From the NCBI GenBank assembly GCA_964449965.1, contig CAYVEO010000003.1, positions 1,052 to 65,051 of the forward strand: a DNA stretch of 64,000 bases, given 5' to 3'. Shown here piece by piece: positions 960 through 59,783 of this stretch (the stretch's first letter is position 1; every line of letters starts with the position of its first letter). The notes below the pieces were generated by a model that was given only the letters and a program-made list of their open reading frames with translations, ran no database searches and was not told the DNA's origin. This DNA is from an uncultured Planctomycetia bacterium (GTDB lineage Bacteria > Omnitrophota > Gorgyraeia > CAYVEO01). A program made the translations under genes and the position numbers.

Positions 960-1075
960 AAACCCTCTTGATATAATCCTTATGGTTGTAGCGGTCCGCC
1001 TAAGGCGGACCTGTCAGGGTCGGATGGATCCGACCCCTACGAGTAGGACGGGCGTCTCGCCTGTCAAATAACAAA
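960..1075 (+). repeat. GC-rich palindromic repeat (family 1, diverged copy C) in the 5' leader of the SurA-like gene.
   Basis: Contains 'cggtccgcctaaggcggacc' and 'gtaggacgggcgtctcgcctgtca', which match the cores of copies at 9347-9404, 33619-33676, 25326-25352 and 44418-44450. It is followed by the RBS 'aaaggagg' and the ATG at 1090. Confidence 0.55.
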
Positions 1076-6164: not shown

Positions 6165-7234
6165 AACCCTATCTCCTTCACTATCAAATCCATCCTGGGA
6201 GAAAGACTAACAGGTTCAGGTGCAGCCTCTATCGCCCTTTCAGTATCTTTTAAACCGTGTCCTGTTAGCACACATACTATTTTCAAGGATTTAGATTTAC
6301 CAGAAGTTTTCTTAAAATATCCCTTCCTGACTAATTTCAATACACCTGCCACAGAGGCGGCAGAGGCTGGTTCAACAAACACCCCTTCTCTGTCTGCCAG
6401 AAGTTTATAGGCGTCCAGAATCTCATTATCATTCACCATGTCAATCAATCCACCTGATTCATCCCTGGCAGACTCTGCCTGTCTCCAACTGGCAGGGTTT
6501 CCTATCCTGATGGCGGTAGCAACTGTCTGTGGTTTTTCTATAATCTCACCCCTCACTATAGGGGCGGCACCTTCAGCCTGAAACCCAAGCATCTTTGGCA
6601 ATGATTTTATCTTTTTCAAATGATAATATTCTTTATACCCTTTCCAATAGGCAGTGATATTACCTGCATTCCCCACAGGAATAGCATGGTAATCAGGGAC
6701 CCCTAACTCATCACATATCTCAAATGCCCCGGTTTTCTGCCCTTCAATCCTGTAAGGATTTATGGAGTTCACAAGGGTAACCGGATATTTCTGTGTAATC
6801 TCCTTTACTAATGTCAGGGCTTCGTCAAAATTCCCTTTGATGGTGATGACCTTTGCACCGTGTATCATCGCCTGTGCTAATTTCCCCTTAGCTATGGCAG
6901 CCTCAGGTACAATGACTATACACCTTATACCTGCCTTAGCCGCATAGGCACTCGCAGAGGCTGAGGTATTACCTGTAGAGGCACACATGATAGCCCGCGA
7001 ACCCTGCTCCAATGCCTTTGAGACAGCCATTGTCATCCCTCTGTCCTTGAACGAACCTGTTGGGTTCATACCATCGTATTTGAGATATACCTCTATACCT
7101 TTTCCAGCCAGTTTACTCAAGGTCTTAGAATAGAGGAGCGGCGTGCCGCCCTCTTTCAACGTAACAATCGGCGTTTTATCTGTTACCGGCAGGAATTCCC
7201 TGTATCTATCTATCAACCCCATCGTTGGCATCAT
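6161..7234 (-). CDS. thrC: Threonine synthase (PLP-dependent).
   Basis: PLP-lysine region '[18 protein letters not shown]' and '[19 protein letters not shown]'. Overlaps hom by 4 bp. Confidence 0.85.
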
Positions 7235-8535: not shown

Positions 8536-9404
8536 TATCTTTTCCTATTTAATATAAAATCGGCGATGCCTCTCAGGCTATCTGCCTTTTTCCCAAAATT
8601 TCTGAGCTCGTATTTGGCTTCTTCTGTAATTCGGGCTGCTTCGTCCATGGCCCCTTTCGCTCCAAAGTATTGAGCATAACCATCATTGTCAATGACATCA
8701 TCTACAATCTGAAATGCCAGTCCTATGTATTGACCAAATCTAAAGATAGATTTTATCTTTCTATCATCTGCCGTAGTGCCGATAGCCCCTATCTTGACCG
8801 AGGCTGCTATCAATGCACCTGTCTTATGGGTATTGATATATTCAAGGACAGCTAATCCTGTATCATTCTTACCCTTCTCTTCCATATCCACAACCTGTCC
8901 GCCTATCATCCCTGTACTTCCTATAGCCCTTGTAATTTCTCTAATCCTCAATATATTAGTTTCTGAATCTCTTCCCTTAGCCAATAATTGAAAACCTAAG
9001 GTAAGGAGTGCATCACCGGTAAGGATACCGATAGCCTCTCCGAATTTCTTATGGCAGGAGGGTTTACCTCTCCTGTAATCGTCATTGTCCATCGCCGGCA
9101 GGTCATCATGGATAAGTGAGTAGGAATGTATAATCTCTATTGCACAGGCAGATGGCATAACGTCTCCCATATTACCCCCACATGACTGTGAGGAGGCTAT
9201 AGCAAGTATCGCCCTGAGCCTCTTTCCGCCTGAGAAGACAGCGTATCTCATCGCCTTATGAATACTTCTTGGAAATACATCTTCACCAGGCAGATATTTA
9301 TTTAATGCCTCATCTACCCTTTTTTTATTTTCTTCTATATAATCTCTGATGACAGGCGGGACGTCCGCCTTGGCGGACGAGACGCCCGTCCTACTAATTT
9401 TCAT
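8535..9404 (-). CDS. ispA: Farnesyl-diphosphate synthase / geranyltranstransferase. The first ~19 codons are the family-1 repeat, so the true N-terminus is uncertain.
   Basis: Polyprenyl synthase motifs 'LIHDDLPAMDNDDYRRG' (FARM) and 'GLAFQIVDDVID' (SARM). It sits in the classical xseA-xseB-ispA arrangement. Confidence 0.8.
   Translation of the reverse strand: MKISRTGVSSAKADVPPVIRDYIEENKKRVDEALNKYLPGEDVFPRSIHKAMRYAVFSGGKRLRAILAIASSQSCGGNMGDVMPSACAIEIIHSYSLIHDDLPAMDNDDYRRGKPSCHKKFGEAIGILTGDALLTLGFQLLAKGRDSETNILRIREITRAIGSTGMIGGQVVDMEEKGKNDTGLAVLEYINTHKTGALIAASVKIGAIGTTADDRKIKSIFRFGQYIGLAFQIVDDVIDNDGYAQYFGAKGAMDEAARITEEAKYELRNFGKKADSLRGIADFILNRKR
9347..9404 (-). repeat. Family-1 palindromic repeat, copy A (57 nt, includes the ATG).
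   Basis: 'ATGAAAATTAGTAGGACGGGCGTCTCGTCCGCCAAGGCGGACGTCCCGCCTGTCATC' on the minus strand. It is nearly identical to the copy at 33619-33676. Confidence 0.7.
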
Positions 9405-10855: not shown

Positions 10856-11565
10856 ATCTTTAACGACTTCTCCTTGATGCTTATAAACCTGCCATCCCCT
10901 ACGATAATGTGGTCTAACAGGTCTATGTTCATTATCCTGCCGGCATCTATAAGCTGTTTGGTCACCTTCATATCATCTTCACTCGGGGTTGGGTCACCGG
11001 ACGGGTGATTGTGTGCCACGATAAGCCCTGCTGCTGAATACTCCACCGCAGGAAGGAACGCCTCTCTGGGATGGACGAGATTGGCTGTAAGGGTGCCAAT
11101 GGATATTACCTCATCATGGATAAGTTTATTCTTTGTATTAAGGTAAAGCCCCCTCAACTCTTCCTTCTTTAGTTTTCTCATGTCCTCCAAATATTTGTAT
11201 GCATCATCAGGTGACCTTATGATAGGGGTCTTACTCGGGTCCTCTTTAAAGAAACGCCTGCCTAATTCAAAACAGGCGACTATCTGGCATGCCTTTACCT
11301 TAGGGACACCCAATGTCTCCATCATTCTCGCAACATTCCTCTCAAACGTAATCGCCTTTGAGCCATACTCTTTGATAATCCTGCCTGAAAGTTCCAGGAC
11401 ACCTTCCTTCTTAGAACCGGTATTCAGGACTATGGCGAGCAGTTCTGCATTCTTCAATGCCCCTGGCCCATATTTGAGCAGTTTCTCCCTGGGTTTTTCA
11501 TCCTCAGGCAGAACCTTCAGATTGATTTCGTACAATTCATCTGCCATAATTTTTGTAGTTGCCAA
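10843..11565 (-). CDS. radC: RadC-family JAB/MPN domain protein.
   Basis: HhH N-terminal region and the JAMM motif 'HNHPSGDPTPSEDD'. Confidence 0.8.
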   Translation of the reverse strand: MATTKIMADELYEINLKVLPEDEKPREKLLKYGPGALKNAELLAIVLNTGSKKEGVLELSGRIIKEYGSKAITFERNVARMMETLGVPKVKACQIVACFELGRRFFKEDPSKTPIIRSPDDAYKYLEDMRKLKKEELRGLYLNTKNKLIHDEVISIGTLTANLVHPREAFLPAVEYSAAGLIVAHNHPSGDPTPSEDDMKVTKQLIDAGRIMNIDLLDHIIVGDGRFISIKEKSLKIWQR

Positions 11566-12241
11566 CCTTGGTTGGCGTATTTCTCAGAAATGACCTTAGA
11601 ACCAATCTAAAAAACCGTATAGTATCTACAATGGGATTAATATTGCTGTGCTGACCATTGTATATCGTAGTTATGGGCAGAGATATAATCTGAAAATTAT
11701 TTCTTGCCGCCTCTATAAGCATCTCTGACTCTGTATCATAATTTGAGGTAGATAATTTCAAATTATCCAGAACCCCTCTCTTTATAAGCCTGAACCCGCA
11801 CTGACTGTCAGGAACACTCTGGCGGATAAACTTGGATATAAGGAAAGAGGTAAACCTGTTCGTCATCCGTCTTAAGAACGGCATCTTCGCTACATCCTGC
11901 ATCCTGTCCCCTATAATAATCACATCACCCTTCTTTGAACCTGCTTCAATGAATAGCGGAATATCCTCAGGCCTATGCTGGCCATCGGCATCCATTACTA
12001 TTACAGCATCGTAACCTAATTCCTTAATGTATGCAAATCCATCTTTAAGAGACTCTCCCTTGCCCTTGTTTGTCCTATGTCTTATGACAAATGCACCTTC
12101 TCTTGAGGCAATATCACCTGTCCTGTCAGATGAACCATCATCCACCACGATAATATCAGAGACGTAATGCCTTATCCCTTTTATCAGGTCCCCTATATTC
12201 TTTTCTTCATTATATGATGGTAGTAATACAGATACTTTCAT
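11537..12241 (-). CDS. Family-2 glycosyltransferase (polyprenol-phosphate sugar transferase-like).
   Basis: 'VLLPSYNEEKNI...IVVDDGSSDRT', a DxD-like 'MDADGQ' and a C-terminal membrane-association region. Confidence 0.65.
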   Translation of the reverse strand: MKVSVLLPSYNEEKNIGDLIKGIRHYVSDIIVVDDGSSDRTGDIASREGAFVIRHRTNKGKGESLKDGFAYIKELGYDAVIVMDADGQHRPEDIPLFIEAGSKKGDVIIIGDRMQDVAKMPFLRRMTNRFTSFLISKFIRQSVPDSQCGFRLIKRGVLDNLKLSTSNYDTESEMLIEAARNNFQIISLPITTIYNGQHSNINPIVDTIRFFRLVLRSFLRNTPTKVGNYKNYGR

Positions 12242-25325: not shown

Positions 25326-25352
25326 ATGTAGGACAGGTGTCTCGCCTGTCAA
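25326..25352 (+). repeat. Family-1 repeat fragment (copy D).
   Basis: 'gtaggacaggtgtctcgcctgtca' matches the outer arms of copies A, B and C. Confidence 0.45.
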
Positions 25353-25453: not shown

Positions 25454-26209
25454 TTATTGATATCTGACATGGTCATCTTCTTTTATACCTGCCTGTCTAT
25501 ATTCTGGGAGAATAACTGCTGAGGACATATTATCATAAACATCTTCTACCTTTATCTTACCTATCGTGTTACTATTCCTGACTATCGTCAATATCATTCC
25601 AGGTTCTATCGTGCTTCTGCGTCCCAGATTAGTTACTACAAAATTAAACTCCTTATTTACAACCAGGACCTGTCCTTCTATTTCTCCTTTTGGTCTGACT
25701 ACCACAGGTTTAAGTCCAACCCCTCCGGCAACCAATTCCTGCATATTCTCTTCAAGTTGTTCCTTGGCAAATCTGATTTGAGCAAGTTCTTCCTGGATAA
25801 CCTTGTTCTCCTCTTTCAATTTATCAATAGAAGCAGTCAAGCCCTCTACTTCCCTTTTTGAACCTTCCAGCGAAGAGTTTAATCTTTCCACATCCTTTTC
25901 CTTCTCTGCCAGATTCTGGGCAAGTTCATCCTTAGCACGCCTTTCAGTAACAATCTCTTCCTCAAGGGTACGTGCCCTTTCCTTCTCCCTGACAAGTTCT
26001 GATTCGGCAGTCTCTTTTAATTTTGTCATATTACCCAGGTCCACTTCTACCTTGGCTTTTTCCTGCGTCACAGTTGTAAGTTGGGTCTCTGCCTGAACCC
26101 TCTTGGACTTCTCATTGACCTTTACAGCAAACAATCTTAATACCACTAAAAAAGAAACTACGCTTACCACAAATAGTGCCATTATACTTATCTTCATTAA
26201 CTTATTCAT
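25454..26209 (-). CDS. Membrane-anchored coiled-coil protein with a small C-terminal β-rich domain (possibly periplasmic adaptor-like).
   Basis: N-terminal TM helix, ~130 aa of heptad-rich sequence, and C-terminal 'GQVLVVNKEFNFVVTNLG...GMILTIV'. Confidence 0.3.
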   Translation of the reverse strand: MNKLMKISIMALFVVSVVSFLVVLRLFAVKVNEKSKRVQAETQLTTVTQEKAKVEVDLGNMTKLKETAESELVREKERARTLEEEIVTERRAKDELAQNLAEKEKDVERLNSSLEGSKREVEGLTASIDKLKEENKVIQEELAQIRFAKEQLEENMQELVAGGVGLKPVVVRPKGEIEGQVLVVNKEFNFVVTNLGRRSTIEPGMILTIVRNSNTIGKIKVEDVYDNMSSAVILPEYRQAGIKEDDHVRYQ

Positions 26210-26227
26210 AACCCACTCCTCTCTTGA

Positions 26228-26275
26228 TTAAGCCCCGACGTAACGTCGGGGCAACTACAATATTTGAAATCCCTG
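26228..26275 (+). repeat. Family-2 repeat copy 1 (hairpin + AACTACAATATTTGAAAT).
   Basis: 'gccccgacgtaacgtcggggcaactacaatatttgaaatccctg'. Confidence 0.7.
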
Positions 26276-26327
26276 AATATGCTCTTATTATACTAACAGT
26301 ATATAAAAAGTCAATCTTTTTTTGTTC

Positions 26328-27857: not shown

Positions 27858-27904
27858 TAATTAAGCCGAGCAAGCTCGGCAACTACAATATTTTGGAATT
27901 CCTG
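27858..27904 (+). repeat. Family-2 repeat copy 2. The stem sequence differs but its complementarity is preserved.
   Basis: 'gccgagcaagctcggcaactacaatattttggaattcctg' abutting the folE stop codon. Confidence 0.7.
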
Positions 27905-28462
27905 CTAAGACCTTATCAATGACATTGCCTCAGCCCTGGTCTTCTCATTTTCCTTGAATATGCCCCTCACTACACTCGTTATGGTCATTGTCCCTGGCTT
28001 CTTCACGCCGCGCATACTGATACACATATGCTCTGCCTCTATGATAACCATAACCCCCATGGGTTTGAGTTTCCGCATGATAATCTCAGCTATATCTGTA
28101 GTAAGCCTTTCCTGAACCTGCAATCGCCTGGACAGTGTATCAACCACACGGACTAATTTACTCAATCCTGTAACCCTGTCACCTTTTGGAATATACGCCA
28201 CATGTGCCTTTCCAATAAACGGAAGTAAATGGTGTTCACACACAGAATAGATGGGAATATCCTTTAACAAAACTATCTCTTCATGGTTCTGTGCTAATAA
28301 AACCTCCAACTCCTCCTCCGGGTCCTGCCCCATACCGCTGAATATCTCCTGATACATCTCAGCAACCCTGTAAGGGGTCTTGGACAAGTCTTTGCGAGAC
28401 AAATCTGCACCGAGCCCTTCCAATACCATTTTCATCCCTTTTTCTATCTTAACCTTATCCAC
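27905..28462 (-). CDS. folE: GTP cyclohydrolase I.
   Basis: '[21 protein letters not shown]' active-site region; 185 aa. Confidence 0.9.
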
Positions 28463-28474
28463 TTTACCTCCTCC

Positions 28475-29866
28475 TTATTTCCCAATGCAAAACTGAGAGA
28501 ATATAAATTTCAGAACATCTTCAGTAACAACTTCTCCTGTTACCTCGCCTAATCCCTCCAGTGCCTCTTTAATGTCAATCGCAGCAAGTTCTGCAGGCAT
28601 TTCTTTATTTAGACCATCAATAGCCCTGTCTAAAGCCTCTTCAGCCCTTCGGACCAAATCCCTGTGCCTGATATTGGTAATAATCACTTCATCATTCGCT
28701 GCTATCTTACCTCCCCAGACCATGTCACTAATAGAATCTTCCAATGACTCTAACCCTAATCTGCAAGCGGCAGAGACCTCAACGATGGTATTGCCGGACA
28801 ATAATCCTGCCACCTCTTGAATGTCTAACCTCCTTGGTCTATCTATCTTATTGATGACCACTATTGCCTTCTTTTTAGTCAGGCTTCCCAGTATTCTCCT
28901 GTCATCCGTAGAAAGCGCCTCGCTTCCATCTAATACTGCCAATATCAGGTCTGCCTTCTCAACGCAATCCCATGACCTCTCTATACCTTTTTGCTCAATG
29001 AGTTCTTGTGATTCAGTAATACCTGCAGTATCAGCTATTCTTAACAGGATACCTCTAACATTCACTGCCTCCTCTATCACATCTCTCGTAGTCCCTGGTA
29101 TAGGCGTAACAATTGCCCGCTCTTCTTTTAATAATGCATTCAATAATGATGATTTGCCTACATTTGGCCTGCCGCAGAGCACTGTGAATAAACCGTTTCT
29201 CAATATTATTCCTGTAGAACTTGTCTCTAACAATTTTTTTAACTTCATCTTCAATTCTATCAACTCGTCTTTTATGCTGGCTTGAGATAGCACCTCTATA
29301 TCATCTTCAGGGAAATCTATAGATGCCTCTATGTTTGCATAAATCTCAAAGAGTTTTTTCTTAACACATTCTAAATATTTTGAAAGTCCCCCGTCTAATT
29401 GGCGAACTGCAGTCTTAAGTCCTGCATCAGTCTTTGCATGGACAATGTCCAGGACTGCCTCTGCCTGGGAAAGGTCTATCCTTCCATTCAAGAATGCCCT
29501 TTCAGTAAACTCACCCTGCCTCGCCAGCCTTCCCCCCATACTTAAAGTCAATTCCAGGACCTTTCTCATCGCCACGAGCCCGCCGTGGCAGTTGACCTCA
29601 ACGATGTCCTCTTTGGTGTAGGTACGGGGTGCACGCATTACCGTAAGAAGGACCTCATCCAGGACATCCCCATTCTCATCCATGATATGACCATAATGGG
29701 TCGTGAATGACTTTGCCCCTGTAATCACCTTCTTTCTATCTGCAGGACAAAATATCTTGCTTGCGATAAGAATAGCATTTCTACCGCTCATCCGCACTAT
29801 CCCTATCCCGCCCTCTCCTATAGGTGTAGAAATAGCAACTATCGTGTCATCAGTACCATTAATCAT
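28475..29866 (-). CDS. mnmE: tRNA modification GTPase MnmE.
   Basis: N-terminal THF-binding domain, G-domain 'GRPNVGKSSLLN' and the C-terminal 'CIGK' motif. Confidence 0.9.
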   Translation of the reverse strand: MINGTDDTIVAISTPIGEGGIGIVRMSGRNAILIASKIFCPADRKKVITGAKSFTTHYGHIMDENGDVLDEVLLTVMRAPRTYTKEDIVEVNCHGGLVAMRKVLELTLSMGGRLARQGEFTERAFLNGRIDLSQAEAVLDIVHAKTDAGLKTAVRQLDGGLSKYLECVKKKLFEIYANIEASIDFPEDDIEVLSQASIKDELIELKMKLKKLLETSSTGIILRNGLFTVLCGRPNVGKSSLLNALLKEERAIVTPIPGTTRDVIEEAVNVRGILLRIADTAGITESQELIEQKGIERSWDCVEKADLILAVLDGSEALSTDDRRILGSLTKKKAIVVINKIDRPRRLDIQEVAGLLSGNTIVEVSAACRLGLESLEDSISDMVWGGKIAANDEVIITNIRHRDLVRRAEEALDRAIDGLNKEMPAELAAIDIKEALEGLGEVTGEVVTEDVLKFIFSQFCIGK

Positions 29867-31205
29867 TTAAACTCTCCATCGCCTCGCCAACTAAGTAGAG
29901 TGAACCTGTAATTAATATCAAACTATTATCGGAACAATTAGAGACTGCCTCACGAATAGCCTCTCTGACATTATCCCGCATGATAGACTCCCTGCAAAAC
30001 CTGCTTAACCTTGCATTTAAACTAACAGGCTCTTCTGCCCTTGGGCTATTTGCCTTTGTAAATATTACTTTATCTGCCATGGGGCAAAGTTCCTTCCCGA
30101 GCCCTTCTATATCCTTATCACTTGAAATACCCAGGATTAGCATCACCCTCTTGCCTTTGAACAAGTCATTGACCGTGGCTTTTAACGCCTTAGCAGATGC
30201 CCTGTTCTGTGCACCATCTACGATTATCAGCGGCTCCCGGCTCAATATCTGAAACCTGCCATGCCACTCTACCTTTTCAAGCCCATTCTTAATCGCCTCT
30301 TGAGCAATAGATATGCCATTGAACCTTAATAACTCCACAAGCCCCACTGCTGTAGCCCCATTGACAATCTGGTGTCTCCCAATTAGCGGAATAGAAAGGG
30401 CAGGATATTCACTCCATATCCCGGTAATATTAAACGTGCTGCCTTCAATAGATGAGTTTATTACACTATATGATATATCCTTACCCACCTCGTAGAGTCT
30501 GGCACCCATACCCTCTGATACCTCACGGAGGACCCTTGCCGCTTCTTCCTCCTGCGGTGCAGATACTACAAAAGAACCTTCCTTTATAATCCCTGATTTC
30601 TCTTTTGCAATAAGTGTAAGAGTAGAACCTAACTTATCTGTATGGTCATAACTGATAGGTGTAATACCACAGGCAATAGGCTGGACTACATTCGTTGCAT
30701 CCAGCCTCCCGCCCATTCCAACCTCAATAACGCCGATATCCACACCCCTCTCTGCAAAGAATTCAAATGCCATGGCAGTATAAACCTCAAAGAAGGTAAT
30801 CCCATCCATACCTTCTTCCTGCTTCACATTTTCTACGACAGGTTTTATATTTGTTTCAATGAGTTCACAAATCTCATCTTCACTGATAAGTCTATCTTTA
30901 CCGTCCTCCCGGTCTATGAGCCTGATTCTCTCTCTGAAATCCACCAGATGCGGTGATGTATAAAGCCCGCACCTTTTGCCTGCCTCTCTTAATATGGAGA
31001 ATACCATAGCACATACAGAACCCTTGCCTTTAGTCCCTGCAACATGGATAGTCCTGAATTTATGCTGGGGATTGCCTAACTCTTTAAGGAGTCTATACGT
31101 CCTCTTTAACTTAAGGTCTGTAGAGTAAGAAAAAACCTTCTTCTCATAGTTGACGAACGAGTCAAGATACGCCACCGCCTCACTGTATTTCACATTGTTT
31201 TCCAT
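29859..31205 (-). CDS. folC: Folylpolyglutamate synthase / dihydrofolate synthase (Mur ligase family).
   Basis: 'IHVAGTKGKGSVCAM' P-loop. Confidence 0.85.
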   Translation of the reverse strand: MENNVKYSEAVAYLDSFVNYEKKVFSYSTDLKLKRTYRLLKELGNPQHKFRTIHVAGTKGKGSVCAMVFSILREAGKRCGLYTSPHLVDFRERIRLIDREDGKDRLISEDEICELIETNIKPVVENVKQEEGMDGITFFEVYTAMAFEFFAERGVDIGVIEVGMGGRLDATNVVQPIACGITPISYDHTDKLGSTLTLIAKEKSGIIKEGSFVVSAPQEEEAARVLREVSEGMGARLYEVGKDISYSVINSSIEGSTFNITGIWSEYPALSIPLIGRHQIVNGATAVGLVELLRFNGISIAQEAIKNGLEKVEWHGRFQILSREPLIIVDGAQNRASAKALKATVNDLFKGKRVMLILGISSDKDIEGLGKELCPMADKVIFTKANSPRAEEPVSLNARLSRFCRESIMRDNVREAIREAVSNCSDNSLILITGSLYLVGEAMESLND

Positions 31206-32837: not shown

Positions 32838-33676
32838 TTCTCAAGCCTCCTTTTAGTGGTCACTTTTCTAAATTCATCTAACAGTTTCTTTGTGATTGAC
32901 CCTGGTTTTCCATCACTTATAATCCTCTTATCTACCGATACAACTGGCATTACTTCTATACTTGTATTTGTCAGGAATACCTCTGCTGCATTATAGACAT
33001 CGTGTCTGGTAATAGGCGTCTCCAATACCTTGAGCCCGCACTTCTCTGCCAGTTCTATGACAACGCCCCGTGTAATTCCTTTAAGGAGTCCTGAATAGAC
33101 AGGAGGTGTCAGAATTATACCGGCTTTCAGAATAAATACATTGCTAACAGAACCCTCTGTAAGATGCCCTTCATGATTTAACATTAGCACTTCAAACGGC
33201 TCCTGATTCATCCCATCTATCTTTGCAAGTATTCCCCATAGAAAATTGGATGACTTGACACTGGGCAAGATGTCTTTTGGAGAATCCCTCCATACAGCAG
33301 AAGTCATAACCTTTACCCCATTTTCATAATATTCAAGAGGATAAGGGACGAACTTCTTAACTATTATTTCAACGTTTTCTGCACATATACTTACCCTTAT
33401 ATATGTATTTTCTATATGACATTCAGCGAGTTTCTCTTTAATCAACCCTGCTAATATTTTCTTTCTATACGGCATTTTAAACCCTATGGAATTGGCAGAT
33501 GCGAATAGTCTGTTTAGATGCTCATCAAGTTTGAAAATCATGCCATTATACGCACGCATACTTTCAAATATGCCACTTGCACCATTTTCCATGAGTTCTA
33601 TGGAGATACTGCTGTTACTGATGACAGGCGGGACGTCCGCCTTGGCGGACGAGACGCCTGTCCTACAATTTATCAT
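32834..33676 (-). CDS. pabC: Class IV aminotransferase. Context suggests aminodeoxychorismate lyase. The N-terminal 19 codons are the family-1 repeat, so the true start may be downstream.
   Basis: Fold-type IV motifs 'GIFESMRAYNG...HLNRLFASA' and 'EGSVSNVF'. It sits immediately downstream of pabB. Confidence 0.65.
   Translation of the reverse strand: MINCRTGVSSAKADVPPVISNSSISIELMENGASGIFESMRAYNGMIFKLDEHLNRLFASANSIGFKMPYRKKILAGLIKEKLAECHIENTYIRVSICAENVEIIVKKFVPYPLEYYENGVKVMTSAVWRDSPKDILPSVKSSNFLWGILAKIDGMNQEPFEVLMLNHEGHLTEGSVSNVFILKAGIILTPPVYSGLLKGITRGVVIELAEKCGLKVLETPITRHDVYNAAEVFLTNTSIEVMPVVSVDKRIISDGKPGSITKKLLDEFRKVTTKRRLEK
33619..33676 (-). repeat. Family-1 palindromic repeat, copy B (57 nt, includes the ATG).
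   Basis: 'ATGATAAATTGTAGGACAGGCGTCTCGTCCGCCAAGGCGGACGTCCCGCCTGTCATC' on the minus strand. Confidence 0.7.
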
Positions 33677-35192
33677 AACCGCCTACAATGTCCACTGCCT
33701 TAAATAATGCCTCTGCCTTGTAGAGCGTCTCATAATATTCCCGGACAGGGTCTGAATCTGCTACGATACCTGCACCTACCTGTAGATACCCCATGCCTTT
33801 GGTAAGTATCAATGTCCTTATAACTATATTTAAGTCCATGTCTCCATTGAAACTTAGATATCCTATTGAACCTGTATAGATATTCCTGGTTACGGGTTCT
33901 AACTCGTCAATGATTTCCATACACCGGACCTTGGGACAGCCTGTTATGGTTCCGCCGGGAAAACCTGCCCTCAACAGGTCAAAACAGTCCATACCGTGTC
34001 TCATCTTGCCTACTACATTGGACACTATATGGAAGACATGGGAATATTCCTCAAGCACAAGGAATTCATCTACCAATACACTCCCATATTCACATACCCT
34101 GCCCAAGTCATTCCTTTCCAAATCAACGAGCATTATGTGTTCTGCCCTCTCTTTTTCATTAAGTATTAATTCGTTAGACAATCTCCTGTCTTCTTCATCG
34201 GTCTTACCCCTCGGCCTCGTTCCTGCTATCGGACGGGTCTGGACATCCCTGCCTTCTAACTTCAACAGCCTCTCAGGTGATGAACTCACAATCTGTAAAT
34301 CGCCTAAGTCAAGATAAGCCGCAAAAGGCGATGGATTGATATTCCTCAGTGCCTTATATAAGACAAACGGGTCATGCTCACAGGGAATAGAAAACCTCTG
34401 TGATAGATTGGCTTGGAATATATCGCCTGACGCGATATATTCCTTTGCCTTTTTTACTATTTTACAGAATCCTTCTTCGGTAAAGTTGGATTTAATAGAT
34501 GTTAAATTAAGCCCCGACGTAACGTCGGGGCAACTACAATATTTTGAAATTCCTGTACACTCTAAATTATTACCTTCCCTTAACCTTGCAACAACCCTTT
34601 CAATCTTATCAACGGCTTCGTCGTAAGATTTGTCAGTATCCTCAATACCCTTGGCGTTTGAAATAACCTTGACACTGCCCTTAATATGGTCAAATGCAAT
34701 GATGGTATCAACAAATAGAAGATTTATGTCAGGTATTTCAAGGTCATCCTCTGCTATTCTCGGAAGGCTTCCAAAGAAGTGTCTGATATCGTATCCAAAA
34801 TATCCTACGGCCCCGCCTGTCCAATTTGGCAAGCCATCTAAGCGGACAGAATGCAGGTTATTAAAGAGCCGCCGCAATTCTAATACAGGGTTTCCTTCAA
34901 GCCGCTCAGTATTTCCGTCTCTTCTTACAATCTCTATACATCTATCCTTGCTCCTGAATACCATAAATGGATCAAAGCCTATAAATGAATATCTCCCTGT
35001 CTTTGGATGAACCCTGGCGCTCTCAAGAAGAAAACTGTTCTTGCCTGGATTCAGCCTCTCAAATATTTCAGAAGGTTCGGGGACAGTCCCAGAACAGGGA
35101 CAGTCCCCTTTAGCATTTAACTCCTTATAAACAGGCACCATCAAGCCTTCTTTAGATAATTCTTTGAATGTTTTCTTATCAGGGTAATACAT
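33663..35192 (-). CDS. pabB: Aminodeoxychorismate (or anthranilate) synthase component I. It carries a 19-codon in-frame insertion derived from the family-2 repeat.
   Basis: Chorismate-binding domain 'IASGDIFQANLSQRF', 'PIAGTRPRG', 'VDLERNDL'. Pairs with the adjacent class IV aminotransferase. Confidence 0.8.
   Translation of the reverse strand: MYYPDKKTFKELSKEGLMVPVYKELNAKGDCPCSGTVPEPSEIFERLNPGKNSFLLESARVHPKTGRYSFIGFDPFMVFRSKDRCIEIVRRDGNTERLEGNPVLELRRLFNNLHSVRLDGLPNWTGGAVGYFGYDIRHFFGSLPRIAEDDLEIPDINLLFVDTIIAFDHIKGSVKVISNAKGIEDTDKSYDEAVDKIERVVARLREGNNLECTGISKYCSCPDVTSGLNLTSIKSNFTEEGFCKIVKKAKEYIASGDIFQANLSQRFSIPCEHDPFVLYKALRNINPSPFAAYLDLGDLQIVSSSPERLLKLEGRDVQTRPIAGTRPRGKTDEEDRRLSNELILNEKERAEHIMLVDLERNDLGRVCEYGSVLVDEFLVLEEYSHVFHIVSNVVGKMRHGMDCFDLLRAGFPGGTITGCPKVRCMEIIDELEPVTRNIYTGSIGYLSFNGDMDLNIVIRTLILTKGMGYLQVGAGIVADSDPVREYYETLYKAEALFKAVDIVGGYDKL
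34504..34555 (+). repeat. Family-2 repeat copy 3, located inside the pabB reading frame. On the coding strand it translates as 'GISKYCSCPDVTSGLNLTS'.
   Basis: 'ttaagccccgacgtaacgtcggggcaactacaatattttgaaattcctg' is identical in hairpin and tail to copy 1. Confidence 0.7.
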
Positions 35193-39011: not shown

Positions 39012-40934
39012 CTAATACGCCTCCTGCCAGTTAGTAGTTGTAATCAGATAATTTGCACTTCCACCCAAACCTGTAAATCCTGGTATGGAACTAATACTGC
39101 TTGCCAATGCAGGAACCTGGTATATCTTTGGTACTTGACTGCCTAAACTGAAATAATTGGATACGAAAGACCCTGCGATTTCGTTCTGCTTGGCGCTCTC
39201 AATCTCACCCTCAGCATAGAAAGCCCCTATCATCTTGAGCTGGGAATCTCCTCCACCAGTGGCTAATTCTATATCTCCATCTGCTATAAGTCCAAGGGCA
39301 TCTGTAGATGGGAATATCCCTTGTGATAAAAGGTCACCATGGACCTCAAATTCCTCACTAAATAGAGAGCCTCTTCCTGTATATTGAATCGTCATATTCT
39401 TTTCTCCGAGTTTCAATTCACCTCCACTGCCAGCATCACTCCCATCTGTTATCCGGACAACACCACTGATAGTCAGTATCCTGCTTGCACTATTCCATGC
39501 GATGCTGCCATAAGCACCTACGTAACTGAAATTACCTGTGCTTGAGTCAATCTTTCCTGAGATAAGATCTTCATTTAAGGAATAAGAATTATCTGCCAGC
39601 CATGCCCTATATGTTGAATAACCTCCATACGGGTCATTCAAACTCGGAAAACTGACCATATCATCCAGGTCATATGGGTTTGTAATCCCATTATCTGAAT
39701 TGACATTTGAAGGACCCTGGGTCCCTCCAAATCCATCATAATATGTGCCAGGTGTGTTATCTCCATCATATGGACCAACATCTACATATACCCCATCCAT
39801 AGTCTCCTTGACACTATTACCTGACACGTTAGTCTGTCCCACTGTAGCACTACCTGATAAGTCTGTCCTACCATTCTTTACCCTGAACTCAGCACTTAAA
39901 CTCCCAACCGTCTCACCGTTAAATGTTACTGTAGGAAGTGGAGGAATTCTGCTTGATAAATCCGCTGGCATACCTTCATAATTATTCCCTATACTGGCAG
40001 TTCCGCTCAAGTCAATGGCTGTATCAGTAGAAGCCAGACCAGAGCCAAGGATATGGACAGAACCATGTAGATAGACATTCCCGCTTATAGCTGAACCACT
40101 CGCCCCTGTCCCTGCAAAGACTGCGTTATTCCATGGAGAGATATTTTTTATCCTTACATAAGCCTGAACCTTCCTTGTAACATTATTATAAGTCCCCTGG
40201 GACCTCACCCATATCTCATCTGTTTCATTTAGGACGTTCTTAAGAGAAGCACTGTAACTGCCGCCGCCAAGATAATTAGAATATAGTGTATAAAAATTAT
40301 TCTCATCCGGGCCAACAACGTAAGCATTAATACTTCCATCACTCCAGCTTGGCGAACCTCCGCCGTTTACAAAATCCTGTTTTAAATCATATAATGCCCG
40401 CTGGAACCCGCCCTCAGCTATATATAGCGCCTTCAGAGAATCCCCTTGACGCACAGTTGCCCTGATTTCGTTATTGCTCAATTTTATAAAACCGGTAGCA
40501 ATAACAACCAGGAGCAGCATAAACGCCATTACCAGGACAAAGACCAACCCTTTTTCATCCCTTTTCATTTTAATAGATACCTTGCTAAAAATTATATATA
40601 ATCCCGCACAGAATAATAATAAGAGAAAATAGAAATCTGGCTTTACATAGAATTTTTTTACGCCTTTTTCAGTCCCTATCAAACCCTTGTCTATCTTCTC
40701 CGTTCCCGGAGACTTCACAATATCTTCTGACCCGCCTTGGTTCAAATCCTTAGCAGATTCTACTCTTTCGGACTCCTTCTGTTTCACCATTTCATTGTAT
40801 TCTTCAAGTGCCTTGTCACGTTCCTGCTGGACAATATATTTCATATCCTCTGGGTCAACATCATCCGGCATCATGGCATAAGAGAATCCATTAAACAGGA
40901 TTACCATGAGTAAAGAAACCTTAAGGACATTCAT
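39012..40934 (-). CDS. PilX_N-domain giant minor-pilin-like protein, paralog 1. A probable alternative start at 40568 would give 518 aa.
   Basis: 'KGLVFVLVMAFMLLLVVIATGFIKLSNNEIRATVRQGDSLKALYIAEGG' (PilX N-terminal signature), then a G/S/T/N/Y-rich β-region. The 5' ~130 nt are nearly identical to paralog 2. Confidence 0.55.
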   Translation of the reverse strand: MNVLKVSLLMVILFNGFSYAMMPDDVDPEDMKYIVQQERDKALEEYNEMVKQKESERVESAKDLNQGGSEDIVKSPGTEKIDKGLIGTEKGVKKFYVKPDFYFLLLLFCAGLYIIFSKVSIKMKRDEKGLVFVLVMAFMLLLVVIATGFIKLSNNEIRATVRQGDSLKALYIAEGGFQRALYDLKQDFVNGGGSPSWSDGSINAYVVGPDENNFYTLYSNYLGGGSYSASLKNVLNETDEIWVRSQGTYNNVTRKVQAYVRIKNISPWNNAVFAGTGASGSAISGNVYLHGSVHILGSGLASTDTAIDLSGTASIGNNYEGMPADLSSRIPPLPTVTFNGETVGSLSAEFRVKNGRTDLSGSATVGQTNVSGNSVKETMDGVYVDVGPYDGDNTPGTYYDGFGGTQGPSNVNSDNGITNPYDLDDMVSFPSLNDPYGGYSTYRAWLADNSYSLNEDLISGKIDSSTGNFSYVGAYGSIAWNSASRILTISGVVRITDGSDAGSGGELKLGEKNMTIQYTGRGSLFSEEFEVHGDLLSQGIFPSTDALGLIADGDIELATGGGDSQLKMIGAFYAEGEIESAKQNEIAGSFVSNYFSLGSQVPKIYQVPALASSISSIPGFTGLGGSANYLITTTNWQEAY

Positions 40935-42656
40935 CTAATTTTGACTCCATGTTATAACACGGGGAGGTTCAAGTCCTCTCGGAAGGTGAAAATCATCCCC
41001 TCTTGAACGTACCCTTATATCATAATTCATCTTTATACTTCCACTATAGACCATCGCCTCATCCCTAGAAACCATACCCCCGTTTACAGAAAATGCCCCT
41101 AACTTTCCAGTGATAACATGGTTTGTATAAATAACAGCATTTACATTCTGAACATTTACTGATGCCCCTATAGAAGTTATGGTACTATCTGCAAGGGATG
41201 ATTCATAATATTTCCTTGAGGCGCCTCCAACTTTTGTTCCACCATCACTTACCGTATAGTTGCCATTGAACAGGTAGCCATTTCCTGAATAATTGTCAGA
41301 ATCATAACCCAATGGCGCATCTGTGGCGTCTGTTGTATAGGCTTGAGTAAAAGGCGGCCTGAGGTAGGTTAAACAGTTAGATTGCCAGCCTGTATTCGTA
41401 TAATTCCCAATCACGACATTTCCCTTTGCTGCGAGTCCGAGAAAATCCCTTGAATTATTAGTGGTATCTGTCTGTGCGGGATTTGTATCCGGCTTGGGCC
41501 ATGCAGGTCCATTGGCATACGTAAGGTTATCCAGTACGTGGATATTTCTACCTGCATATATTGTCCCCTGACCCTGCACCGTTCCCTTTATCAAGAGGTC
41601 TCCATTTACCACAACAGGACCACTTAGGACAATCGGATTAGAAACTGTACCGGTAAGAACTATACTGCCATCATCTGGTGTCCCGGTAACATTGTCAGGA
41701 CCAGTTCCTGAATAGACATTATTAACAAGAGTAACGCCACCCTGGGTTATTTGCCCATTTTCAGCAATTGCTATATTTCTATAATCTTGCAGGTCTCCAA
41801 GATAAGGCATATCAAGTACCTGCTGATATTGGTAACGGGTGCTTGTTCCATTATAACCGGGTTCATAGGCATAGGTATCAAGTTGGCCGCTCATATTCGT
41901 ATCTTCTCCTGAGTCAAGCAGCCCGTTAGAATTTGAATCCTCACTCGTTGCGGTAGGATTTGTCGGTCTTGCCTGGGCAGGTGCATTGCTTCTATACCAG
42001 GAGATGGTATTATTTCTACTGCTTCCTGTTATTGTCCCTGCAGCGCCGAGTGCTGTATTTATGGCCGCATATATATCACCATTTACAGTTGGGTTCCCGC
42101 TAAATGCAAAGTTACCATTAGACCTGGTATTTCCATGTGCAGTTATGCCTGCCCCATAGAACCATCCAAAATTATTGATAAAATAGGCATAGTCAAATAC
42201 GCCTGACGCCCTAAGTTCATACCTGACAGTACCACGGACTTTTCTTATTTCATTTCCGACGGTAGCAGTGGAAAGCATCTCTACGTCACGTTGTCCTGTC
42301 CCAGGGGTTGTAACGGACGTTACAGTTACAGTATATCTTCCTCCACCGAGTATTTCATTCGTTGGGAGTCCACCAGTATAATTACTCGGATTATCAAACC
42401 ATGTAAAGGACGAGGTTGCCCAGCCGCTTGCTATAAATACATCTCTAAACGAATTATACAGAACCTGCTTTGCCTTATCAATCCCGCCCTCAGCGATATA
42501 AAACGCCTTCATGGAATCCCCCTGGTGCATAGTCGCCCTGATTTCGTTATTACTCAATTTTATAAAACTGGCGGCAGAGACAACCAATATGACCACAAAT
42601 GCCATTACTATGATTAAGACAAACCCTTTTCTGTTCATTTTCGTAACATAGGACAT
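40935..42656 (-). CDS. PilX_N-domain giant minor-pilin-like protein, paralog 2.
   Basis: 'KGFVLIIVMAFVVILVVSAASFIKLSNNEIRATMHQGDSMKAFYIAEGG' and a strong RBS (AGGAGG); 573 aa. Confidence 0.6.
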   Translation of the reverse strand: MSYVTKMNRKGFVLIIVMAFVVILVVSAASFIKLSNNEIRATMHQGDSMKAFYIAEGGIDKAKQVLYNSFRDVFIASGWATSSFTWFDNPSNYTGGLPTNEILGGGRYTVTVTSVTTPGTGQRDVEMLSTATVGNEIRKVRGTVRYELRASGVFDYAYFINNFGWFYGAGITAHGNTRSNGNFAFSGNPTVNGDIYAAINTALGAAGTITGSSRNNTISWYRSNAPAQARPTNPTATSEDSNSNGLLDSGEDTNMSGQLDTYAYEPGYNGTSTRYQYQQVLDMPYLGDLQDYRNIAIAENGQITQGGVTLVNNVYSGTGPDNVTGTPDDGSIVLTGTVSNPIVLSGPVVVNGDLLIKGTVQGQGTIYAGRNIHVLDNLTYANGPAWPKPDTNPAQTDTTNNSRDFLGLAAKGNVVIGNYTNTGWQSNCLTYLRPPFTQAYTTDATDAPLGYDSDNYSGNGYLFNGNYTVSDGGTKVGGASRKYYESSLADSTITSIGASVNVQNVNAVIYTNHVITGKLGAFSVNGGMVSRDEAMVYSGSIKMNYDIRVRSRGDDFHLPRGLEPPRVITWSQN

Positions 42657-52318: not shown

Positions 52319-52419
52319 TGTAACGGAAGGCTTTAGCCTTCCATATCTGGAGACTTGTAAGGGAAGCCTTTAGGCTTCCATTGGAGACCTAAAGGTCTCC
52401 GCTACTATGTCTCCGTTAC
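52319..52419. other. Structured region made of three tandem perfect 7-bp/4-nt-loop hairpins of different sequence, bracketed by a short outer complement.
   Basis: 'ggaaggcTTTAgccttcc' (52325-42), 'ggaagccTTTAggcttcc' (52362-79) and 'ggagaccTAAAggtctcc' (52383-52400). 'gtaac' (52320-24) pairs with 'gttac' (52415-19). Confidence 0.5.
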
Positions 52420-58814: not shown

Positions 58815-59093
58815 TTATGCAGCCTTCAGTTCGCGTACGTGGAGAATTTCCTTTCCTCTCATTGCCCTGACATCGCCAGTACTGAGAGTCACAACAGCAG
58901 CAGTTCCCCCCTCACCCGTCACAAACTCGACTTCAAGTGCCTTGCCACTCCGATAGCAGTGTACAACGGCTCCGATGTCGCCAGCCTCCAACCCATATTC
59001 AGGTGCATTCCGAGTTAACACAACCGCATCCAATTCTTTTATCATAATACCATCCGTGAGGCCGGTTGGATTCATCAGCTTGTTAGACATCAC
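58815..59093 (-). CDS. DUF4926-family small protein.
   Basis: 'LDAVVLTRNAPEYGLEAGDIGAVVHCYRSGKALEVEF'. Overlaps the hicA stop by 4 bp. Confidence 0.5.
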   Translation of the reverse strand: MMSNKLMNPTGLTDGIMIKELDAVVLTRNAPEYGLEAGDIGAVVHCYRSGKALEVEFVTGEGGTAAVVTLSTGDVRAMRGKEILHVRELKAA

Positions 59094-59302
59094 AAATCTT
59101 CAGGCTGGAGACCCGTGTGTTTTGCAATGCGAGCCAACATCCGAGGACCAATTTCTTCGCGATCATGAAAGGCAAAAACGAAATCAGGATGCCCTTCCCT
59201 TGCAAGTATCTGGTGAGACCCTGAGATCCTCTTGACCTTCCATCCTATACGCTCCAATGCCTTTAGGACTTGCCGGGCTCGCGTACTGGACCAGTGGCTC
59301 AT
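59090..59302 (-). CDS. hicA: HicA-family mRNA interferase toxin. The start is trimmed to the internal ATG at 59302.
   Basis: 'ALERIGWKVKRISGSHQIL...FAFHDREEIGPRMLARIAK' (YcfA/HicA). The upstream part of the track ORF overlaps hicB in another frame and is not coding. Confidence 0.7.
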   Translation of the reverse strand: MSHWSSTRARQVLKALERIGWKVKRISGSHQILAREGHPDFVFAFHDREEIGPRMLARIAKHTGLQPEDL

Positions 59303-59505
59303 GCCGCTTTGAACAAGATCGTAATGGGAGCCGCAAGTTGCTCGCCCTTTTCTATTCTTTCCGCTATCACCCTCAAGGCAAGAGCCTCCGCTTGTCCCAA
59401 GGCTTCCTCTCGGCTTCCTCCGTACTTCATTACGCCGGGGAGTTCTATGATCTCGGCGATCCAACGACCATCGGTTTCCTGTTCAGTTTCAATTGTGAAC
59501 TGCAT
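59299..59505 (-). CDS. hicB: HicB-like antitoxin (UPF0150).
   Basis: 'MQFTIETEQETDGRWIAEIIELPGVMKYGGSREEALGQAE'. ATGA overlap with hicA. Confidence 0.65.
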   Translation of the reverse strand: MQFTIETEQETDGRWIAEIIELPGVMKYGGSREEALGQAEALALRVIAERIEKGEQLAAPITILFKAA

Positions 59506-59698: not shown

Positions 59699-59783
59699 TG
59701 TATAATTTCCTTTGAGCGGCAACCTGTCGGGGCGTCATAAATGTCGCCCCTACAATTTAAAGTTAGAAAGAGGGGTATAAATT

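Follow-up and report, generated by a model that had tools for sequence, protein, structure and literature searches.

A repeated hairpin within a PabB/TrpE-family gene

This work concerns a short palindromic repeat in a 64,000-nucleotide (nt) stretch of DNA from an Omnitrophota lineage (contig CAYVEO010000003.1, positions 1,052-65,051, assembly GCA_964449965.1; hereafter the window). One copy of the repeat, the "pabB copy", lies inside an open reading frame (ORF) of the PabB/TrpE family (Table 1). The genes from about 4 kb to 60 kb are nearly all on the − strand. The host ORF is intact, as had been noted in an earlier reading of the window made from its letters alone (the sequence-only reading), and keeps every residue that is invariant in the family.

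Assignment of the host gene to the TrpE/PabB family is secure from its Pfam domains, and its identity as pabB is plausible. None of the NCBIfam equivalog cut-offs is reached: the best model, trpE_most, scores 509.9 bits against a cut-off of 517.7, and the PabB models fall below theirs too. We favour pabB because aminodeoxychorismate synthase component 1 (7pi1, 407 bits) is among the closest solved structures, together with the top hit, 7qu9 (415 bits, labelled only "anthranilate synthase component I family protein"), because a class IV aminotransferase gene (Aminotran_4, PabC-like) overlaps the host gene downstream, and because the folate genes folC (29859-31205) and folE (27905-28462) are nearby. 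Both 7qu9 and 7pi1 score well above 7bvd (313 bits), the best among chains carrying the label anthranilate synthase component 1 (TrpE), and the pairing with the aminotransferase gene is conserved in four related loci (L003, L013, L102 and L103). The name aminodeoxychorismate synthase, given in the sequence-only reading, is thus borne out as to family and folate context but not by an equivalog match.

The pabB copy encodes roughly residues 212-232 of the protein, the peptide GISKYCSCPDVTSGLNLTS corresponding to residues 214-232 (codons 34553-34497). In an AlphaFold2 model of the host protein (mean predicted local distance difference test score, pLDDT, 79; predicted template modelling score, pTM, 0.85), pLDDT drops below 50 at residues 209-226, the only other such stretch being a short one at 413-416. 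On one side of residues 209-226 is the helix 186-206, on the other the helix 239-254, which is the first of the chorismate-binding domain. The model predicts that the element-encoded stretch forms a disordered inter-domain loop.

Four copies of the repeat in the window

A covariance model (R1) was built on an alignment of eight stem variants (A4), the class with a 21-nt stem being left out. When run against the window, R1 returned exactly four copies (Table 1). Three of these are the dispersed "family-2" copies of the sequence-only reading, all present where it had placed them; the fourth, copy 4, it had missed.

Table 1. Positions of the host gene, the repeat copies and the other GTAG-headed hairpins in the window
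Feature	Position	Strand	Remarks
PabB/TrpE-family ORF	33663..35192	−	Intact, 509 aa; Pfam Anth_synt_I_N at residues 39-174, Chorismate_bind at 239-492
Copy 1	26227..26277 (core 26227-26260)	−	Intergenic, between TolC-like OEP gene and coiled-coil gene; same stem as pabB copy
Copy 2	27860..27906 (core 27860-27888)	−	Intergenic, between folE (GTP cyclohydrolase I) and OEP gene; R1 47.8 bits
pabB copy, core	34506..34539	−	R1 31.7 bits, E=2e-4; stem class outside the model
pabB copy, left module ACAGGAATTTCAAAATA	34540..34556	−	From alignment A2 and flank comparison
Copy 4	11553..11581	+	R1 42.6 bits, E=1e-6
59-nt GTAG family, nested hairpin	33618..33676	−	pabB/pabC junction; fold −35.6 kcal/mol, z=−5.0
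59-nt GTAG family, second copy	9346..9404	−	Polyprenyl synthetase gene; 93% identity to 33618-33676
Inverted GTAG-hairpin pair	988..1040		GTAG ends outside (head-to-head, HH, dimer in Di Nocera nomenclature); gap between two + strand genes
Single GTAG-headed units	25328-25350 and 52383-52405		Sequence different from that of the repeat
putA-upstream hairpin	59718..59762	−	ATTGTAG-GGGCGAC..GACGCCCC; GTAG-headed, one stem mismatch

Read in the sense of the gene, each copy has the form (ACAGGAATTTCAAAATA)-TT-GTAG-TT-[GCC..stem-loop..GGC]-TTAAT. The GTAG is unpaired and followed by the dinucleotide TT, after which come a perfect GC-rich hairpin, which GCC/GGC closes, and the conserved tail TTAAT; as a rule the module ACAGGAATTTCAAA stands before the unit. 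Stems are perfect over 6-9 bp, loops measure 2-4 nt and the core 29-34 nt. The whole element is about 50-57 nt long. The left module ACAGGAATTTCAAAATA is found in copies 1-3 of the window (the pabB copy being the third), in the related locus L001, in three metagenome loci (L097, L099 and L100) and in the singlets of the metagenome-assembled genome (MAG) CAYWFU01 (L016). All window copies of the family are singlets.

The core of the pabB copy reads TTGTAG-TT-GCCCCGACG-TTA-CGTCGGGGC-TTAAT, with GTAG at 34537-34534, 9-bp arms at 34531-34523 and 34519-34511, and the loop at 34522-34520; on either strand the folding energy of the hairpin is about −18 kcal/mol. Copy 1, at a distance of 8.3 kb, is identical to it over 39 nt (26227-26265 = 34506-34544, ATTAAGCCCCGACGTAACGTCGGGGCAACTACAATATTT) and matches it at 96% over 50 nt. 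The shared 39-mer as quoted in the sequence-only reading is exact for copy 1, but the pabB copy has one extra T in the tail (ATATTTTGAAAT). Copy 2 keeps the tail and carries a different, perfectly paired stem, GCCGAGCAAGCTCGGC (GCCGAG-CTTG-CTCGGC), just as had been described for it (at 27858-27904). Copy 4 has the stem GCCAACCTTGGTTGGC (GCCAAC-CTTG-GTTGGC), a divergent tail (GTATT) and an orientation opposite to that of the others; it sits at the junction between the end of a glycosyltransferase ORF (11537) and the start of a RadC-like ORF (11565). The 14-mer CAACTACAATATTT occurs three times in exact form in the window and five times with up to two mismatches, against 0.77 expected, a count of five being reached in 0 of 100 shuffles.

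The gaps that hold copies 1 and 2, within a string of co-directional genes, measure 65-118 nt, and the next start codon follows the copy at 17-20 nt (17 nt between the end of copy 1 and the ATG of the coiled-coil gene at 26209). The sequence-only reading correctly placed the pabB copy in frame within the linker, but also called it antisense to the gene, a label that hinges on which strand is arbitrarily chosen. By the convention for repetitive extragenic palindromic (REP) sequences, which puts the GTAG tag at the 5′ end, the pabB element is sense-oriented, as are copies 1 and 2 in their operon; copies 1-3 thus all read in the sense direction within the long co-directional string.

A strong sigma-70-like match (TTGACT-16-TATAAT, 11 of 12 positions) is present at 26287-26314 on the − strand, between the stop codon of the OEP gene and copy 1. 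Given this match, copy 1 would fall in the 5′ untranslated region of the coiled-coil gene (25454-26209).

Covariation of the stem

The eight distinct stem variants are Watson-Crick paired in 56 of 56 pair cells. Four of the seven pairs vary, and do so exclusively by two-sided changes; the other three (GCC/GGC) are invariant, and one-sided (G-U) states number zero. The covariation score, 0.735, compares with 0.195±0.058 for shuffled data, which never reach it (0 of 500), and falls to 0.10 or less when the pairing partners are slid. The pairing of the stem is clearly maintained. GTAG is invariant in all eight variants and in about 60 copies; it was required by the pattern of the collection scan described below, and within the window was recovered without that requirement.

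The sequence-only reading had taken the compensatory changes as evidence that secondary structure is what is selected. The covariation upholds maintained pairing between fixed flanks, but it does not by itself prove selection on RNA, for templated copying between copies would give the same pattern. A DNA palindrome accounts for the missing wobble pairs and the equal stability of the two strands no less well than an RNA structure does.

The same site in related genomes

The host protein was compared with its 120 best PabB homologs, and the DNA of three close relatives was inspected at the corresponding site: L003 (Omnitrophica MAG GCA_016188875.1), L001 (an ENA metagenome) and L002 (GCA_900217965.1). 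Such an alignment had been proposed in the sequence-only reading; only these three of the homologs are close relatives, and in all three the site is occupied, by the element in identical or altered form. L003 (96.3% nt identity) has the identical element. L001 (93.6-96%) has it with the stem GCCGACCTTGGTCGGC, in which two base pairs have been lost symmetrically, one pair is swapped and the loop is shorter than in the window. Five indels, two of them small ones in the left module, separate L001 from the window and sum to −6 nt, so that the gene remains in frame but the central part of the element is translated in a different one, the encoded peptide going from LECTGISKYCSCPDVTSGLNLTS in the window to LVFRNFNNFVVADLGRLNLTS in L001. 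Differences between the two sequences affect 11 of 64 positions in the element, against 5.7% outside (binomial P about 1e-3).

In L002 (79.5% nt identity) the same site is occupied by CCTCCGATG-TTA-CATCGGAGG, with a 9-bp stem; relative to the window, three of its nine pairs are altered, always on both sides. The GTAG tag is degenerate here (GCGAG) and R1 does not recognise the hairpin; homology is accepted because of its position, 20 identities in 29 aligned positions and the common TTA loop. The recurrence of the hairpin in L003, L001 and L002 also disposes of an assembly artefact. Since the hairpin stands at one site in independent assemblies with a differing peptide, it is the palindrome of the nucleic acid that is maintained and not the peptide. 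The latter is unconstrained: orthologs use different frames, the indels sum to a multiple of three and the palindrome stays perfectly paired. In the next PabB clade (L101-L103, about 62% amino acid identity) the linkers are unalignable, similar in length and without a hairpin.

The suggestion that the element added 19 codons to the gene was not borne out as stated. Measured from the KIER helix to the IKSNFT motif, the linker spans 19-82 residues in the 120 homologs (median 25.5), and that of the window, with 33, is only about 7 above the median; no ortholog with an empty site was seen. For a pure gain of 19 codons, the ancestral linker would have to have been below the observed range; probably, then, part of an old linker was replaced or the acquired piece was smaller than 19 codons. 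Insertion into the linker and replacement of part of it would both be compatible with the presence of the element.

A second in-frame insertion is seen in L002 pabB at about 1800-1850, following the conserved DTDK motif. This 48-nt segment (16 residues, SYPKKDRPSPFHIREG) is lacking in each of the 21 other homologs aligned. It represents a genuine insertion, by presence and absence, of a different small element, and forms an imperfect palindrome, AGACCTTCCCC...GGGAAGGGTCT, with the direct repeat TCTTAT on its flanks and without a GTAG tag.

Copies in other genomes

A collection of species-representative genomes, which does not include the species of the window, was scanned with the pattern TTGTAGTTGCC-N6-20-GGCTTAAT. 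The scan gave 92 loci, about half of which (about 40) are chance matches in unrelated genes, with non-palindromic spacers. About 50 copies, counted in the 8-kb blocks fetched from it, belong to CAYWFU01, and all have the stem TGATT(T/C)ATCA. They are mostly inverted doublets with facing GTAG ends (tail-to-tail, TT, dimers) about 10 nt apart, of the form TCGATAAATCGA-GCAACTAC-ATTGAAATTT-TTGTAGTTGCC-TGATTTATCA-GGCTTAAT, and are intermixed with other GTAG palindromes and with a ACAGGAATTTGAAA module. CAYWFU01 has a pabB-pabC pair of its own, its pabB being 65% identical in nucleotides to that of the window. In the other genomes none of 52 copies lies deep in an ORF, so that the placement in pabB is exceptional and fits a tolerated accident. 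A scan of Joint Genome Institute (JGI) metagenomes gave only three true extra copies (L097, L099 and L100), intergenic and identical to copy 2.

Behind the doublet in three CAYWFU01 loci (L011, L038 and L076) there is a longer mosaic repeat, ACAGGAATTTGAAA...TTAGGCACAAAGGCACAAAG(T/C)AGCAAAGGCACAAAGTTT..., with its inverted complement about 60 nt on. It has the appearance of a bigger, composite element that includes the ACAGGAATTTGAAA module as well. A 29-nt core, TTGTAGTTGCCTGATT(T/C)ATCAGGCTTAAT or the compensated variant TCATTTATGA, was also met in loci from MAGs labelled Dehalococcoidales (L060, L077 and L091) and Proteobacteria (L095), paired with an inverted partner in L077 and L095; this could reflect either spread of the family across phyla or mis-binned contigs.

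Nature of the element

Taken as a whole, these features make it quite likely that the pabB element belongs to a GTAG-tagged, REP-type family of palindromic repeats of this Omnitrophota lineage. Like the GTAG-tagged REPs (Di Nocera, De Gregorio & Rocco 2013), the units have a GTAG end, a dinucleotide, a GC-rich stem of 6-9 bp, a loop of 2-4 nt and a tail. There are several families per genome, alternative stems, inverted dimers, stop-codon donation and occasional intragenic copies, and the copies described here are mostly extragenic, in co-directional gaps or at an ORF junction. In the published GTAG-1 and GTAG-2 REPs an unpaired dinucleotide separates GTAG from the stem and a short conserved tail follows; GTAG REPs comprise sub-families with alternative complementary stems, form HH and TT dimers, and lie between co-directional genes, where the TAG with which a flanking ORF stops is supplied by GTAG (PMC3733652). 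REPs wholly inside ORFs have been described as well, and it has been argued that they are tolerated in flexible linkers or loops (PMC3733652). Unlike the published GTAG REPs, the present elements have an Omnitrophota host, an additional conserved 17-nt left module and no RAYT gene located with them, and their sequence matches none of the published GTAG consensus families, as far as checked. In the literature searched, no paper joined "Omnitrophota" and "repetitive extragenic palindromic".

Likeness to other repeats is more partial. Rickettsia palindromic elements (RPEs) are likewise palindromic repeats found in frame in coding genes, translated and tolerated at surface positions; they differ in being longer (about 100-150 bp for RPE-1), in their CGTC tag (in Di Nocera's scheme), in belonging to an unrelated lineage and in being mostly intragenic. 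The inverted doublets of CAYWFU01, about 10 nt apart, recall the doublets known as REPINs (REP doublets forming hairpins) or BIMEs (bacterial interspersed mosaic elements) (PMC2817692, PMC3479197, PMC8266576), and a perfect palindrome behind a conserved motif resembles the second REP group of PMC8266576. Unlike RAYT-mobilised REPINs and BIMEs, the window copies are singlets, and no RAYT was found in the sequence searched.

REPs are thought to be mobilised by RAYT (TnpAREP) enzymes of the HUH type, which process a single-stranded hairpin behind a conserved motif (PMC8266576). The present units may spread, or be homogenised, as DNA: a RAYT-like HUH/Y1 enzyme would process the single-stranded hairpin in trans, with templated copying between copies as an alternative or additional route. 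The stem of the pabB copy is the same as that of copy 1, whereas the orthologous site of a strain about 5% diverged carries a different one, a pattern suggestive of recent copying or homogenisation among copies, and we infer that the element is mobile. Most copies lie between co-directional genes. The one in pabB would be transcribed and translated as a passenger inside the predicted disordered linker, where the enzyme may tolerate it because the loop serves as a surface spacer of variable length.

Some results weigh against this account. The window and about 0.4 Mb of related loci (partial genomes) yielded no RAYT/Y1 transposase gene when searched by tblastn with E. coli RAYT and IS200 TnpA sequences and by a crude six-frame HUH...Y motif scan. 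The site is occupied in all three close relatives, and no empty-site ortholog exists among the 120 best homologs. For the organism itself, the copies counted are the four in the 64-kb window, with only three more in JGI metagenomes. Lastly, perfect pairing at one site across about 20% divergence exceeds what is expected of a neutral passenger, unless the copy is refreshed repeatedly. There is a small chance that the hairpin is more than a passenger and that a nucleic-acid structure is selected at this exact site. It could serve as an inter-domain pause or processing signal, as a signal for pabB-pabC expression, or as a kept substrate of a REP-processing enzyme; if so, site selection would explain the perfect stem at about 20% divergence, the symmetric indels in the arms, the pair swaps and the frame-hopping.

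A wider version of this idea makes the hairpin a selected cis-acting RNA at every site (mRNA 3′-end stabiliser, partial terminator, RNase site or translational pause) and the family a regulatory motif. Known REPs have been reported to act as RNA elements (PMC3733652), and the sense orientation of copies 1-3, the position of copies 1 and 2 just ahead of a start codon and the persistence of a perfect hairpin at the pabB site over 4-20% divergence with no conserved peptide all agree with such a function. The pabB copy even passes a simple terminator-like scan on the − strand, with a 9-bp stem followed by TTAATTTAAC; yet the U-tract behind the stem is weak and no other copy passes, for which reason the terminator reading was set aside. 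We consider the RNA interpretation unlikely. The 56 pair cells hold no G-U intermediate and each variant pairs equally on both strands, as a DNA palindrome would; copy 4 is oppositely oriented; the roughly 50 copies of CAYWFU01 are mostly inverted doublets in all sorts of intergenic contexts; the linker of the next PabB clade has no hairpin; and no Rfam family reaches its gathering threshold anywhere in the window, the element region giving only a chance-level match (E=0.97). A promoter reading of CTACAAT on the + strand was also set aside, as the match is at consensus level only and promoter-like sites number 27 against 20±4 expected.

An insertion sequence of the MITE type (miniature transposable element with inverted repeats), integrated with a target-site duplication, would account for a small, dispersed element with several near-identical copies and polymorphism between close strains. 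It is nevertheless very improbable, given a length of only about 50-57 nt, no terminal inverted repeats beyond the central hairpin and no target-site duplication in the flanks of the six copies compared, whereas the asymmetric GTAG...TTAAT ends fit REP-type units. Integron attC sites have R″ and R′ core sites and go with a cassette array and an integrase. An attC identity was rejected by inspection, no search being run: the element is too short, lacks R″/R′ core sites and has no cassette array or integrase nearby. As for the pabB stretch being a native linker that resembles the repeats by chance, or an assembly chimera, the length of the linker is indeed that of many homologs and an empty-site ortholog is missing, but 39 of 39 nt (and 50 nt at 96%) are shared with an intergenic copy 8.3 kb off, the family exists in other genomes, and an identical or variant element stands at the same site in three independent assemblies. 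This last possibility is effectively refuted.

If the REP assignment is right, GTAG-tagged REP-type repeats extend to Omnitrophota, a mostly uncultured phylum of the Planctomycetes-Verrucomicrobia-Chlamydiae (PVC) group. The orthologous intragenic site, where palindrome and flanks are kept while the loop peptide is frame-shifted, makes an unusually clean natural experiment, and shows that the upkeep of REPs, whatever its agent, works at the level of the nucleic acid, coding regions included. The sequence-only reading, in proposing a small structured element tolerated in frame in an enzyme gene, was largely right in spirit, but this kind of element was already known. Intragenic copies, stem covariation and stop-codon donation all have precedents; what is new is the Omnitrophota lineage and the occurrence of orthologous intragenic copies in differing frames, and no new kind of element or mechanism is revealed.

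Other GTAG-headed hairpins in the window

The 64 kb also contain at least five GTAG-headed hairpins that belong to other families (Table 1). At the pabB/pabC junction, the GTAG tag of the 59-nt element provides, with its TAG, the stop codon of pabB, and the 59-nt elements make up the first ~20 codons of the longest pabC and polyprenyl synthetase ORFs. Both copies open with ATGAWAAWTWGTAG, and in both the longest downstream ORF starts at that ATG. As a consequence, the PabC-like aminotransferase and the unrelated polyprenyl synthetase would share the N-terminus M(I/K)(N/I)(C/S)RTGVSSAKADVPPVI. Pfam domains of the two proteins begin at residues 35 and 47; the 59-nt repeat is either a donor of start codons and N-termini or a cause of misled gene callers. 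Repeats that supply a stop codon (pabB) and apparent starts and N-termini (pabC, polyprenyl synthetase) can mislead gene callers in MAGs of this sort. In L001 the 3′ end of pabB differs and is without the 59-nt element. In L103, a relative of 62% identity, the pabB-pabC gap is filled by a large nested palindrome, CCCCGTTAGAGATA...GTCCGCCTGAGGCGGAC...TATCTCTAACGGGG (about 6440-6600), the inner hairpin of which resembles that of the 59-nt family of the window (GTCCGCCAAGGCGGAC) and the unit at 988-1011.

The hairpin upstream of putA had been put forward as a possible distant relative of the pabB element. It is a GTAG-headed hairpin on the − strand and a distant member of the same superfamily, but belongs to a different family, and R1 fails to detect it. 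Next to the putA upstream region lies an ORF (59090-59464, − strand) whose residues 64-119 form a HicA toxin domain.

Between 4000 and 60000 the GC skew of the + strand is uniformly negative, and seven of about 10 GTAG tags are on the − strand. If gene and replication directions agree, the − strand would be the lagging-strand template, which fits single-strand processing but is confounded with the direction of transcription. Elsewhere in the window, a 160-nt direct repeat (40407-40566 and 42483-42642, 79% identity) is shared by the adjacent ORFs 39012-40934 and 40935-42656, which are probably tandem paralogous genes.

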